Origin: a virus
Lineage: Duplodnaviria > Heunggongvirae > Uroviricota > Caudoviricetes
Direction: 5' to 3' (one strand)
IMG/VR virus record: IMGVR_UViG_2526164602_000021
DNA: 22,731 nucleotides
Each line of letters starts with the position of its first letter. Position 1 is the first letter of the stretch. Made by a program: the position numbers. Below, piece by piece: positions 6,001 to 22,731 of the stretch.

Positions 6001-9000
6001 GCGCCAGCCATTCCGACAGCAGAACCGCGAATTTCCGTCAACTGGCTGTTCAGTTCTGCCAGGGCACGTCGCTGATCCCGGGCTGCCGCAGCGGCCTGAC
6101 GCCCGCCATTCTGCAGGGTCCGGTAATATTCACTGCCCATACGGGACGCCCGCTGGATCTCCGACTGGAATGACTGCGAATTTGCCGAAATTTTGATAAT
6201 CAGTTCACGTAACGTCGCCATTCACCTTTCTCCGGGCAAAAAAAACCTGCCACAGCAGGTTTTCATCATTATTTATGACATTGCTGCAAGGCTCAGCGCG
6301 TCTTCCAGCGCCGCAAACGGATCCACCTCCGGCTTATCCTCATCCTCGCCCCAGCAGAGCATGGCGTCCTTCAGTGCAACATTCATCCCCTGTGCCCCGA
6401 AAAACCGCCTTTCACGATCTGTGCATTACGGATATCCCCGCGCTCATCACCCAGCGGGGATACCCTGTCGAACTCCATCCACATCATCGCCTCGCTCGCA
6501 CTCAGGCTGTGCCGCAGTTCGGATAAGGTGCGCCCCAGACGGAGCGCAAGTCGCATCAGAAAGCGAATTTCCGGGCGGGCTACTTTTTTCTGGCCGACTC
6601 TGCATCAGCGATCAGTTCCAGTGCCTGACGCAGCAACCGGGCATGTACCGGACCATAGACGGCCAGCACCTGCTCACGGTCGTCCGGAGTGAACACCCGT
6701 TGCAGGTCAGTATCACACAGGACATCGCAGAACAGCGTCACATCCGCTTCCAGGTTACGGCGGGTTTTCGCCACCACCGACAGGGTATCGTCATCCTCTC
6801 CATCACCATTGAGCACTTCCTGCCACAGATACCAGGCCTCTGCCGAAGGCTCCCGCAGCACCACGCTGACATTTCTCCATTCCGGCACCTTCACCGTTTT
6901 ATGACGGAACCCCGACAGTCTGGCCAGCGCCAGTGTTTTCAGATCTTTTGCCATAAGCCTTATCCGCCCGCACCATTAACCGTTACCGTACACGCATCAG
7001 AGGTAATGCTCTGCGGCTGTTCTGCAGAATCCGTTACCACGCAGGTATAAGCCCCCTTATCACCTGACTGCGCATTGGCTTTACTGAAAGTGTCAGTAGT
7101 CTGTCCCTCGACCGGCTGACCATCCTTCTTCCAGGCGTATTTATACGGCGGCGTTCCCCCGTTGGCACTGACTGACATTGTCAGCAGCGCACCGGTATTC
7201 ACGGTAAGTGTCTTCTCCGGATTTTTCACAAACGCCAGCGGTACCACATAGGACACCGGTTTACCCTTCAGGCGAAGTGAAAACGTTGCAGCCACCACGC
7301 CGTTGGTACCGGATGACCAGGTGTGCTGACGCACTTCCGCCAGGAACTTAAAGCCCTTACCGGACGGAAACTGCACCTTAAACGCATACACCGTGTCATT
7401 GTCATAGGCATCACGCAGGGCGTTCTGGGCCTGATTCAGATAAAAATTACCCGACATGGAAATCTCGGACGACGCCCCCAGACCGTTGATGTTCTCCTGC
7501 TCTGTGGAGCAGAGCGTGGTCACATCAATATCCTGTTTCTGACCGGCGGTGAACTGGACTTCCTTGATGGTGCAGTCCAGGCGCAGATATTCCGCCTTAT
7601 CCATAGTTTCAGCAGTCGCCGGGGCAGATGAAATCATCACCTGCGTCAGCTGTGAGCGTTCATACAAAGCAGACATTCTGCCTCCTGATAATAAAAAACC
7701 CGCACGCGGCGGGGTATGGGTTTTGTAGAAAAAAAGAAAAAGTCACACCGTGACCTGAAACTCCAGGGTTGCACGGTAACAGCGGTTTTCCGGAATATAG
7801 TCCTGCATTTCACTGACGGATCCCGGGGCCAGCAGCATTATGGCTTCACGGGCGTCCTGACGTATCTGACGCGCCTGCGTCACAGTCCCGGCATAAACGT
7901 CTATCTGCACCGACACTGAGGACTCCGCCTGCCCGCCCATCACGTCCGCAGACACCGATGAAATCAGGCTGAAAACCACCCACGGAAGCGCCACCGACGG
8001 CCTGCCATCCAGCAGGGGGACCACATACGGGTACACCTGCCCGCCGGCAAGATGCGCCAGATAAGGATACAAATCCGCCTCCGTCATCGTCTCAGTACCT
8101 CATCAATGGCCCGGTTCATCCGCGCAATCGCCACCTGAGCTGCCTGTTCACTGCGCACATCAAACGCCGGGCGCACAAACGGGTGCGGTGGCATATTCAC
8201 GGTCCCCATTTCCACAAACCGCCAGTAGAAAGCATTGCGCGGGTTATCCGCCTTCATGGTGTTATCGCTGTTACCGGTGTCCGGATTAACACCACGGATA
8301 TGGACACCGGATTCCATCCCGCCATCGCGGGAGCGCCGGGAAAGGACCACCACATTGCGGCGCAGTTTTCCCCTGCGTACCGGTGCCCGTGACACCACTT
8401 CTTCTTTCAGCACATTCGCACCCGCACGGGTTGCCTCACGCAGCACCCGGTTATTTTCTGCACCACTCAGAAGCTGCAAATCGCGGCTGATGTCCTCCAG
8501 CCCCGAAAAATCCAGCAGGGTTTCGATCATTTTTCCCCTCCCAGCCGACAGAGAATTTCCAGACGCCCGCCGGTCACATCCGGCACGGGCAGCCCGACAA
8601 CGTTCAGGATCCGGTCACGCCATGGACCACTCAGCACATGAAGTCGTGACGCTGCCGTGATTTCCCGGCCGGACTGACCGCGCACCCAGATGCGGATTTC
8701 CGCCTGCGCCATTTCCGCACCGGACTGCATCCGCTCCCGGCTGCTCCTGCCACGGATATCCGCATGAATTTTCCCGCATGACACCCATTCTTCCGTCATT
8801 TCTCCGGCAGCATTACGGGTTAACACCGGGTTCAGAACACTTATCATCTGTGTCAGACGACCTGCAGATATTGCCATTCCCCCTCCTCATAACACCGTCG
8901 GACAACGCAAATCGTAAATCAGCACGGACACAGAAAACGGCAGTTCCCCCTGCACGAGGTCTTCCCGCTCAGCAAGATCCGGATTCCGGTACAGCATCCC

Positions 9001-21000: not shown

Positions 21001-22731
21001 CGGATTACCGGTACCCGTCATCGCCACACCATCAGGAACGGGAGCATCCGTATACAGATAAATCCCCAGCCCGAACTGATTGTTGGTCAGCGCGCCTGAC
21101 AGGCGGAACTTACAGGTCAGTCTGCCGCCCTGTGTCAGCAGGGTAATTGCGTCATCCACCGGATGCGTCAGGGACCAGGTTTTATTGCTCTGCCTGGTGA
21201 TCTTAAATACACCATCTGACAACTGAATTCCGCCATCCTTAATGCTCCAGCCCTGCGCAGCAGCCTCTCCGGCTGCCGGCAGCAGGGAGATTGTGCGAAC
21301 GGACGTATCTGCAGACGGACCCGATGGCGTGTTGCCGCCGGGGCGTAGGGTTTGATTTCCGGTGCCTTACCACTGATGAAGGCTGAGGTGCGCCCGGCTG
21401 CGTTCAGAATAGCGGTTGCCAGACGATCCGGAATAATGCTCCTGCGCGCCCATGAACTGAAATGTGTCGGGCGGTTTGATGATACCTGGTTTCCATTCGT
21501 TCTCGATGCCGCACCGTAATATCCTGATGCCGGAATATCCGGATCTTCTGCCGGCGCGTTAGTGGCGGTATTGACGCCGTTACCGTCTGTCATGAAGGGC
21601 ACAAAATAAACGCCCTCACTCTCCCTGTTTTTATACCCGCCGTACACGGTGTCGTATTGGGTAGCGTATGTACTTTTCCAGTAATACGTCGTGTCACCAC
21701 AAATCCACGGCACATCTGCAGCGCTGCCACCATGGCACTGCGCGTTAAACACGGAGAGGTCAGCACGAAACTGTGTCAGCATGGCTGTAAACAGCGCAGG
21801 TTGCTGTGCGTGGGTGGCGGCGCTCATGTCAAACTCACCCTGCATCCAGCAGACGGCCAGTCAGAACGTTTTTTGGGATTTTTCTGCAATGCCGCTTTTG
21901 TGCGGGAAATCAGATCCTGATATAACGGCTTGCCCACCCCCCAGCGTGCCGAATCCTGACTGGCCCCCGTGGACTCGCTGAATGTCCCCTCCGCGCCCTG
22001 GGTAAATGCCGAACCACCACGACAGCATGGTACCAGCAGGATCCCCGCGTTATTCGGGATATACGGGAGCAGTTTTTTTGGCAATATGTAAACCCTGGCC
22101 GACACAGCCGTACTGCCCTTTGCTCAGGTCAGCCCTCGGATGATTCAGCGTACTCATATCCTGCACATCATGCAGACAGTGGTCAGCCGGAATAATATCG
22201 TTATATCTGCAGGCAGCCCCGCCCGGCGTCACTGTACTGCGGCGCGCCAGCTGTTTAATGCGCGGATCCGGAGCATCGTATGAATCCGGCAGCGGAAGCC
22301 CTTCACCGTAAGCCATGGCATTGGACTGCCCGGCCAGTACGATGACGTAGTACCAATCCGGCTCAGATGAAGGGCCGACCTGTGGCTCTCCTTCAATAGC
22401 CACCGCCTGCATCAGTGTGTACGGCGTAATGGCAACCGGTCCGCCGTATGGCTGCCAGCCCTCTTTCAGTTTGTGTGTCAGCTTTTCCGCAAGGTCTGAC
22501 GGCGACGCCGCCCTGACAACATCATAATGTTTAAATGTCATTATTCCTCCCGGCCGGGATAGTGTATTAAATCAGATATGGGAGTGGGCTGGCTGTAGTC
22601 CGGAAGCCTGAATGACACTCGGGGACTACAGCCCAAGAAATGAAAAAAGGCCACGCAGTTGCGCAGCCTGATAAACCCTGGTTAAAATCCACACGATAAC
22701 AACACAACAATATCAGTATCTCATGCTATTG

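Follow-up and report, generated by a model that had tools for sequence, protein, structure and literature searches.

Frame breaks in four late genes of a lambdoid prophage of E. coli O157:H7, namely the tail assembly gene T, an endolysin gene, a nanS-like esterase gene and a gene for a repeat protein, are most probably artefacts of sequencing or assembly and not lesions of the prophage, a reading that the sequence comparisons support strongly without amounting to proof. The window analyzed here is the entire 22,731-bp contig AKLW01000023.1, which belongs to the draft genome of strain TW11039 (2012). Read in this way, the late region should probably be taken to encode an intact T, endolysin and nanS, and its frame breaks would be a poor basis for calling the prophage defective; leaving aside the 38-nt deletion that splits the repeat-protein gene, nothing in the late region argues against inducibility. 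Taken at face value, the same sequence makes the prophage look lysis- and tail-defective and leaves the strain's count of nanS-p esterases one too low. The value of the analysis lies in the prevention of such misreadings.

Source and Assembly of the Contig

The content of AKLW01000023.1 is lambdoid late-gene DNA throughout, a kind of sequence of which each O157 genome holds several near-identical copies, and the contig has the draft-consensus origin that is expected of a false pseudogene. Two assembly routes are described in the genome paper, one from Illumina reads only with Velvet and the other a hybrid of Illumina and 454 FLX/XLR reads with Celera (PMC3593324). The route taken for each strain is left unstated there; the contig counts per strain split into two groups, 47–71 and 393–1,288, and TW11039 is listed with 71 contigs (PMC3593324). 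Because the strain thus falls into the low-contig group, we infer that it is a 454 hybrid assembly, the contig count being the sole basis of this assignment.

Close relatives were sought through private substitutions. The V, terL and tape-measure (H) proteins of the contig are each unique among approximately 15 billion proteins and the repaired nanS occurs nowhere else in the same collection, and therefore no sister strain can serve as a control. A search for a second assembly of TW11039 found none, the V, terL and H proteins being on record from this contig only. The segment at 425-2108, considered as a possible IS insertion and hence as a sign of decay, turned out to be an ant/arc accessory-gene cassette (moron) that intact prophages carry too.

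Inventory and Spectrum of the Indels

Indels were called against the ~99% identical prophages of EDL933 (L002) and PNUSAE146744 (L001). The first-pass annotation had reported that the endolysin, T and the nanS-like gene are disrupted and that the repeat protein is also split, and the comparison confirmed both statements, positions included (Table 1). All four genes lie on the minus strand, and their breaks amount to two insertions in T, one deletion in the endolysin and five insertions in the nanS-like gene, all of a single base, together with a 38-nt deletion in the repeat-protein gene.

Table 1. Features of the window discussed in the text; Pfam scores refer to the repaired or reference protein.
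Feature	Position	Strand	Remarks
Gene T for tail assembly (Phage_tail_T), with two 1-nt insertions that break it	6273..6556	-	PF06223, 4.6e-19, 69.1 bits
Slippery heptamer A AAA AAG at the end of G	6583..6589	-	reads GCCAGAAAAAAGTAG; intact, separate from the indels
Two intergenic A-runs, each 1 A shorter than in EDL933	7693..7735	.	7693-7698, A6 versus A7; 7729-7735, A7 versus A8
Gene for the repeat protein, located downstream of the portal gene; split products of 200 aa + 156 aa	9210..10233	-	MAFFT alignment with EDL933
162-nt tandem repeat (54-aa unit), 2.2 copies	9654..10017	.	Tandem Repeats Finder
Junction of the 38-nt deletion	9655..9656	-	lost sequence TGTTCTGCAGAAGGCTGTTCTGGATGCGGTGAGAGCCC; 2-nt TG microhomology
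Endolysin (Phage_lysozyme), one base lost at 19815	19386..19918	-	minus strand AAAAGGAAGG -> AAAAGGAGG; PF00959, 87.2 bits
nanS-like esterase (DUF1737 + SASA + DUF6645), with five 1-nt insertions that leave four ORFs	20683..22541	-	versus L001/L002
Private 1-nt insertion, GG -> GGG (+G at 22580)	22580..22582	.	intergenic, upstream of nanS, 150 nt from contig end

When 21-mers of the window were compared with 297 related loci (2.46 Mb), the variants private to the window were eight single-base insertions and the 38-nt deletion junction versus only four substitutions; every one of the eight private single-base indels is an insertion, and no private 1-nt deletion was seen. These insertions include three pairs whose members lie 3–8 nt apart, an arrangement matched by 0 of 200,000 random placements in simulation, and six of the nine private or coding indels crowd into the final 1,400 nt of the contig (P = 3.9e-6). 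The spectrum is error-like because of this excess of insertions over substitutions, the pairing within 8 nt and the enrichment at the contig end. The lengths of the two intergenic A-runs, in contrast to these private variants, are common to other related loci and break no frame.

Neither the eight insertions nor the 38-nt junction were present in 5,426 complete E. coli genomes, for the stretches that were queried, and no indel is shared with any of the approximately 500 complete genomes in which at least 80% of the window is present. Among the sequences examined, which cover independent assemblies of the clonal lineage as well as paralogues, the insertions and the junction occur nowhere else, and the endolysin deletion recurs in only five further assemblies, of which four are drafts and none is a complete RefSeq genome. 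Lesions held in common with related strains or prophage copies, as decay would leave them, were accordingly not observed in the genomes and paralogues compared, nor was the decay signature of substitutions, nonsense codons and a bias toward deletions, the 38-nt one being the only deletion-type lesion. The assumption in the first-pass annotation that no deletions accompany the frameshifts was thus wrong. Its description of the flanking protein sequence as conserved-looking proved correct, for when the indels are repaired T and the endolysin are identical to their EDL933 counterparts (0 aa differences each), nanS differs by 3 aa, and internal stops are found in none. Moreover, five frameshifts in one gene that holds a single private substitution are unlike neutral decay.

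The same annotation had placed the breaks at or near short homopolymers and had proposed homopolymer error as their cause. This is true for four of the nine coding or private single-base indels, which fall in runs of at least 3 nt, a class that accounts for 17.6% of the bases (P = 0.058), but two insertions lie in no run at all, each of them 3–8 nt from a run-associated insertion, and the 38-nt deletion is likewise no homopolymer event. Error as such is supported, while homopolymers explain only about half of the sites. The broader claim that error fits better than long-term decay has held up well, being backed by the draft source, the privacy of the lesions, their spectrum and clustering, and the recurrence of the endolysin deletion described below.

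Tail Gene T and the G-T Frameshift Site

Compared with L001, L002, L003 and AR-0430, T has an A-run at 6400-6404 that is one base longer (A5 instead of A4) and one additional C at 6408-6409. The 21-mers across these insertions are missing from all 297 related loci, and no complete E. coli genome that matches the stretch from T to the repeat gene, the best match included, has the two bases. The truncated product of 57 aa is on record from AKLW01000023.1 only among ~15 billion proteins. In the lambda-like G-T chaperone fusion the T frame is normally reached by a frameshift, so that a “broken” T may be normal, and the contig has the corresponding site at the end of G (6580-6954), which itself gives a full-length Phage_TAC_1 match (2.3e-61). 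By lambda G-T biology, we take this heptamer to be the signal for the programmed -1 frameshift. However, the heptamer is intact, and the break in T is situated ~180 nt further into the gene (6404/6408) and consists of two additional bases that no relative has; programmed G-T frameshifting was therefore rejected as the explanation.

Endolysin Deletion

Relative to L001/L002, the endolysin lacks one T at its affected site (CCTTCC to CCTCC). DEC4E (two contigs), PA22, VIFR01000002.1 and one IMG/VR contig have lost this base too, which makes at least five other contigs from at least four assemblies, with four different paralogue backgrounds; one of these contigs is 5.34 Mb long. TW11039, DEC4E and PA22 are WGS drafts of neighboring accession series and, we presume, were probably produced by the same sequencing center in the same period; DEC4E in particular we take to come from that center and from the 454 era. 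A 120-aa C-terminal fragment of the endolysin found on 23 contigs was discarded as independent support for the frameshift, since the contigs inspected end inside the gene, with the gene start at contig position 3-58.

One reading of this recurrence is that most of the insertions are errors while the endolysin deletion is a genuine inactivating allele, recurrent or spread by gene conversion, and the 38-nt deletion is perhaps real as well. The number of contigs, assemblies and paralogue backgrounds and the megabase length of one carrier speak for it, as do related truncated products of 62 aa in other megabase contigs and the clean 38-nt junction with its 2-nt microhomology. Against it, none of 4,173 places in 836 complete RefSeq genomes matches the 61-mer around the deletion in the window exactly, the deleted form is represented in IMG/VR by one contig versus at least 120 intact ones and appears in no metagenome contig and no GTDB representative genome, and clonal O157:H7 relatives with finished genomes have an intact endolysin. 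Because most of the carriers are drafts and the finished O157:H7 relatives are intact, a systematic error at the endolysin motif is indicated. We thus consider the mixed reading as a whole unlikely, and the narrower proposition that the deletion at AAAAGG[A]AGG is a real recurrent allele, arising at a slippage hotspot or through gene-conversion spread among O157 endolysin copies, very improbable; were it true, prophage lysis genes would have been silenced repeatedly in some EHEC lineages. If the deletion is an error, as we favor, the site illustrates that one false frameshift may recur in several drafts and so mimic a shared mutation.

nanS-Like Esterase

Of the five insertions in the nanS-like gene, three lengthen a run: a G at 21343 turns G3 into G4, and a T at 21869 and another at 22073 turn T5 into T6 and T6 into T7, respectively. 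The other two are single Ts added at 21346 and 21861. The repaired or reference protein, of 617 aa when repaired, matches PF08410 (57.5 bits), PF03629 (48.6 bits) and PF20350 (65.8 bits), all above the gathering threshold, as are the matches to PF06223 and PF00959 in the genes described above. None of 80 IMG/VR paralogues has the insertions, the best complete-genome matches span 2,126 nt versus the 2,132-nt query and are devoid of them, and scans for the exact patterns in GTDB representative genomes and IMG/VR gave no match. Among ~15 billion proteins the N-terminal fragment is recorded from AKLW01000023.1 only, and the two middle fragments have no record. A 179-aa C-terminal fragment present on five other contigs derives from other truncations or frameshifts, and the insertions of the window are in none of them.

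Repeat Protein and the 38-nt Deletion

Compared with EDL933, the repeat protein is shorter by one 162-nt repeat unit, which leaves the frame unchanged, and carries the 38-nt deletion that splits the gene. The two-unit form of 353 aa is a natural allele: re-insertion of the 38 nt yields a protein with an exact match on 438 other contigs. The junction itself is spanned in 0 of 2,982 places in complete E. coli genomes, and its 21-mers are private with respect to the 297 related loci. It is flanked by TG, and we lean slightly toward a mis-join beside the tandem repeat over a real deletion, which is the weakest inferred step of the analysis. The notion that the repeat protein is naturally split, prompted by RefSeq entries for a “frameshifted portal” in reference genomes, was rejected, as these concern a pair of ORFs that overlap (ATGA) in some phages and are fused into one in others.

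Artefact, Decay or Chimera

The mechanism that we propose begins with the multi-copy nature of late-gene DNA, in which an overlap-consensus assembler would place few reads unambiguously, above all near contig ends. The consensus could then take over read-level errors, such as homopolymers called too long or too short in 454 reads and groups of insertions contributed by reads of low quality, and as an outcome T, the endolysin and the nanS-like esterase would falsely look like pseudogenes. Coverage or quality is accordingly likely to be low at the indel sites. As far as sequence can tell, the pattern fits a low-quality consensus in multi-copy prophage DNA and not decay. It resembles the false pseudogenes known from 454 and draft consensus in that insertions predominate among the single-base indels, in that these indels sit in part at homopolymers, form clusters and are confined to one draft, in that the project used 454 reads with Celera for some strains, and in that the genes become intact after removal of the bases. 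It differs in that about half of the sites are outside runs of at least 3 nt, and in that Illumina reads also existed, which should have polished simple homopolymer errors; the 38-nt deletion, for its part, is no pyrosequencing or other per-base error type, would need a mis-join beside the 162-nt repeat and could be genuine. Further points against artefact are that genuine frameshifted genes are common in O157 prophages, that the private substitutions and the unique V, terL and tape-measure proteins could mark a truly unusual prophage lineage, and that the endolysin recurrence could reflect a real mutational hotspot. The unique proteins also enter the competing view that the indels are real mutations private to TW11039, with T, endolysin and nanS as true pseudogenes in a decaying, defective prophage. 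Four broken genes, one of them with a 38-nt deletion typical of real decay, the possibility of a lineage without sequenced relatives, and the location of some half of the indels in homopolymers, a setting in which replication slippage operates as well, favor such decay, and defective lambdoid prophages are usual in O157; a “defective prophage pool” has reportedly been described for O157:H7 strain Sakai. The Sakai-type prophages belong to the same phage family and have the same kinds of genes, and classically it is their morphogenesis and lysis genes that are damaged, by frameshifts and small deletions. However, those defects are inherited and common to clonal relatives, whereas the lesions of TW11039 are in no complete genome examined, and in AKLW01000023.1 indels outnumber substitutions, the reverse of the usual ratio. 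Spontaneous indels in bacteria lean toward deletions and are far rarer than substitutions, in contrast to the private variants found here; the three +1/+1 pairs have no simple mutational explanation, and neither five frameshifts in a gene otherwise 3 aa from EDL933 nor the crowding at the contig end is what decay would predict. We therefore regard real decay as having a slim chance.

That the contig is a chimera assembled from several paralogous prophages (a collapsed repeat), with indels where reads of different copies merged, is conceivable, if doubtful. The K-ant-arc-L module is joined to the present late region in no complete genome (best coverage 93%), the tape-measure region is without an exact match (best 99.4%), neighboring variants form private combinations at 2764-2784, 4034-4071 and 5290-5372, bases of L001 type and L003 type alternate over short distances near 7033-7041, and the V, terL and H proteins are unique. 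On the other hand, at nanS site A (21343/21346), the sole site checked, all 80 of 80 paralogues read CGGG-CG-AGGG, and therefore merging of paralogues cannot create the inserted bases there, so that merged haplotypes were rejected as the source of the double insertion at this site; a three-way haplotype scan also revealed a mosaic mostly of long blocks, as natural recombination gives, with few short alternations. Chimerism explains the odd substitutions better than the indels and is compatible with, not opposed to, the artefact explanation. Practically no credence can be given to the idea that the breaks are functional, as phase-variable tracts or recoding sites regulating lysis, tail or esterase expression. 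Some indels do alter short mononucleotide tracts (T5 to T6, T6 to T7, A4 to A5), but the tracts are at most 7 nt long and show no length variation in the 80 paralogues or the complete-genome matches, which effectively refutes it; besides, two insertions lie outside any tract, three separate recoding events would be required in nanS, and the programmed G-T site is elsewhere and intact.

Sister Drafts

Pipelines for prophage completeness, pseudogene detection or pangenomes that use drafts of this period would inherit false frameshifts of the kind proposed here. Sister drafts show damage of a similar sort, which speaks for the artefact reading: several phage genes are split in DEC4E, and a contig of TW09109 carries private nanS indels of its own at 144, 186 and 191.

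Frame breaks and their repair

The first-pass annotation had described breaks of frame in the endolysin, T, nanS-like and repeat-protein genes, and this description was correct. Called base by base against the EDL933 prophage locus, the breaks in T, endolysin and nanS resolve into single-base indels (table); two further relatives give the same differences. Once they are undone, the T and endolysin proteins are identical to those of EDL933 and the nanS protein shows three amino acid changes; the repaired T, endolysin and nanS contain no internal stop codon, the gene identities are upheld by Pfam, and every window gene apart from the disrupted ones is full length. 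The truncated peptides match exactly the GenBank proteins EIO67119.1, EIO67141.1 and EIO67147.1 of E. coli TW11039.

Indels and other features of the window, with the outcome of the 21-mer test for the single-base changes
Feature	Position	Strand	Location	21-mer test
ant/arc cassette	425-2108		between tail genes K and L
P22-type antirepressor	497-1543	minus	within cassette
Arc-like repressor	1748-2092	plus	within cassette
Tape-measure protein	2700-5480
+A (A4 to A5)	6404		T gene	private
+C	6408		T gene	private
A AAA AAG heptamer	6583-6589	minus	directly before G stop codon
V protein	6960-7676
-A	7693		intergenic A-run 7693-7698 (A6/A7)	not private
-A	7729		intergenic A-run 7729-7735 (A7/A8)	not private
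162-nt (54-aa) tandem repeat	9654-10017		inside repeat protein
ATGA overlap	10230-10233		portal/repeat protein
34 clustered substitutions	13774-14605		terL
-T (CCTTCC to CCTCC)	19815		endolysin
+G (G3 to G4)	21343		nanS-like esterase	private
+T	21346		nanS-like esterase	private
+T	21861		nanS-like esterase	private
+T (T5 to T6)	21869		nanS-like esterase	private
+T (T6 to T7)	22073		nanS-like esterase	private
+G	22580		upstream of nanS	private

The break in T is not the programmed G-T slippery site, as the A AAA AAG heptamer lies elsewhere and is intact; directly preceding the G stop codon, this heptamer is the expected signal for a programmed -1 G-T fusion. The two A-runs lie between the major tail gene and gp17 and vary in length among related prophages, either as natural tract polymorphism or as a recurrent miscall.

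Source of the contig

A megablast search of 5,426 complete E. coli genomes places the window in the late region of a lambdoid prophage whose genes lie here on the minus strand. It is about 99% identical to a prophage found in O157:H7 strains, EDL933 and PNUSAE146744 among them, with only 93% of the length covered. It is one whole draft-genome contig of E. coli TW11039 (AKLW01000023.1, GCA_000267165.1). Two assembly routes, Illumina HiSeq only with Velvet and an Illumina plus 454 FLX/XLR (3-kb inserts) hybrid with Celera, are given in the genome announcement, which does not assign strains to either; TW11039 has 71 contigs, five other strains 47-66 and the remaining strains 393-1,288 (PMC3593324). 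Its 71 contigs place TW11039 with the low-contig strains, and we infer that this group, TW11039 included, consists of 454 hybrids.

Error or decay

In bacteria, substitutions arise spontaneously far more often than indels, and the indels are biased towards deletion; 454 errors are mostly insertions and homopolymer miscalls, and consensus quality drops in repeats and at contig ends. When 21-mers were compared with 168 and later 297 related loci (2.46 Mb), eight single-base indels, all of them insertions, were strictly private, as was the junction of a 38-nt deletion in the repeat-protein gene; only four substitutions (7040, 13815, 20513 and 21673) are equally private. All six insertions of the nanS region are missing from the best complete-genome matches of this 2.1-kb stretch (2,126 nt, six fewer than the 2,132 nt of the window) and from 80 nanS paralogues in IMG/VR; those in T are found neither in three reference prophages nor in the best match to 5480-9655. 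In complete genomes, the 38-nt junction is spanned at none of 2,982 places, and the window 61-mer around the endolysin deletion occurs at none of 4,173.

The indels are also clustered, with three adjacent pairs spaced 3-8 nt apart, an arrangement obtained in none of 200,000 random placements. Of the nine indels that are private or lie in a coding sequence, six fall within the final 1,400 nt of the contig (P = 3.9e-6). Neutral decay that left five frameshifts in one gene would be expected to leave many substitutions as well, yet nanS with its five differs from EDL933 at only three residues. The earlier preference for error over decay is thus supported by indels that are private, uniformly insertions, clustered and mostly near the contig end, and the single-base indels are very probably errors. 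The proposed position beside short homopolymers holds strictly for about half of them: four of these nine sit in runs of three or more, to which 17.6% of all bases belong (P about 0.06), and two insertions lie outside any run. The claim that no deletions accompany the frameshifts was wrong, given the 38-nt loss, itself perhaps a mis-join. The mechanism is probably a low-quality consensus where prophage DNA is multi-copy and a contig end is near, with classic homopolymer error playing only a part; there is nothing biologically new in the frame breaks.

The endolysin deletion in other assemblies

Further endolysin N-fragments, likewise truncated to 66 aa, were traced through the protein collection to DEC4E (two contigs), PA22 and VIFR01000002.1, all of which lack the same base of AAAAGG[A]AGG or of its paralogous variants. 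A real hotspot could account for such recurrence, and is improbable: TW11039, DEC4E and PA22 are all WGS drafts, their accession series are neighbours, and we take them to come from one sequencing centre and one period, while in their finished O157:H7 relatives the site is intact. The deletion therefore looks like a systematic error tied to this motif. In IMG/VR the deleted form is on one contig against at least 120 with the intact form, and it was found in no metagenome contig and no GTDB representative genome. A 120-aa C-fragment on 23 contigs gives no further support for the frameshift, as the contigs inspected end inside the gene.

Prophage genes in other drafts are similarly damaged. In another of the project's 26 strains, TW09109, nanS carries private indels (L173, AKLY01000044.1, 124-190; +A at 144, -G at 186, -A at 191), and in DEC4E (L179 and L180) several phage genes are split (endolysin 66 + 89 aa, gpA 408 aa, YdfR 92 aa). 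A 179-aa nanS C-fragment on five contigs was produced by other lesions.

Repeat protein and portal

One 162-nt repeat unit is missing, in frame, from the repeat-protein gene, which lies downstream of the portal gene and also lacks the 38 nt. The missing unit is ordinary variation, because alleles of 353, 407 and 461 aa (two, three and four units) occur naturally. With the 38 nt put back, the 353-aa protein matches residue for residue on 438 contigs. The lost segment has 2-nt TG flanks and sits at the edge of the tandem repeat; a true deletion is only somewhat less probable than a mis-join, to which we lean because of the other lesions that accompany it. The protein has no above-threshold Pfam family, and its C-terminus has only a sub-threshold CBM_5_12 match.

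The RefSeq "frameshifted" portal of EDL933-type prophages is not a lesion but a natural polymorphism of fused and split genes. In the EDL933 type, portal (454 aa) and repeat protein (407 aa) are two overlapping ORFs (8561-11145 of the EDL933 locus, L002), and in phages like the MB41-1 prophage (L003) they form one 859-aa ORF (29380-31959); among the loci examined, 12 are fused and 20 separate.

Possible mosaic structure

Among about 15 billion proteins, the V, terL and tape-measure proteins are each found nowhere but on this contig. Of the 5,426 complete genomes, none matches the tape-measure DNA exactly (best 99.4%), nor does any link the K-ant-arc-L module with this late region. A haplotype scan gave mostly long blocks, and two paralogue haplotypes alternate over short stretches near 4031-4095 and again near 7033-7041. 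The contig may have arisen as a rare natural mosaic, or its consensus may be partly chimeric between paralogous prophages; in either case it is less to be trusted as a true copy of a single prophage. The terL substitutions relative to EDL933 look, from their distribution, like a recombination patch, because the flanks are nearly identical.

The 1.7 kb of extra DNA between K and L, where EDL933 has 35 bp, is not an IS element but a cassette of accessory genes (moron); window 1-2783 has zero mismatches with the MB41-1 prophage integrated next to sbmC. In the complete RefSeq genome of AR-0430 (L089, NZ_CP044140.1), the repeat-protein gene shows a different single-base loss, C7 becoming C6 at the equivalent of window 9319; this may be another homopolymer error, though the assembly is finished.
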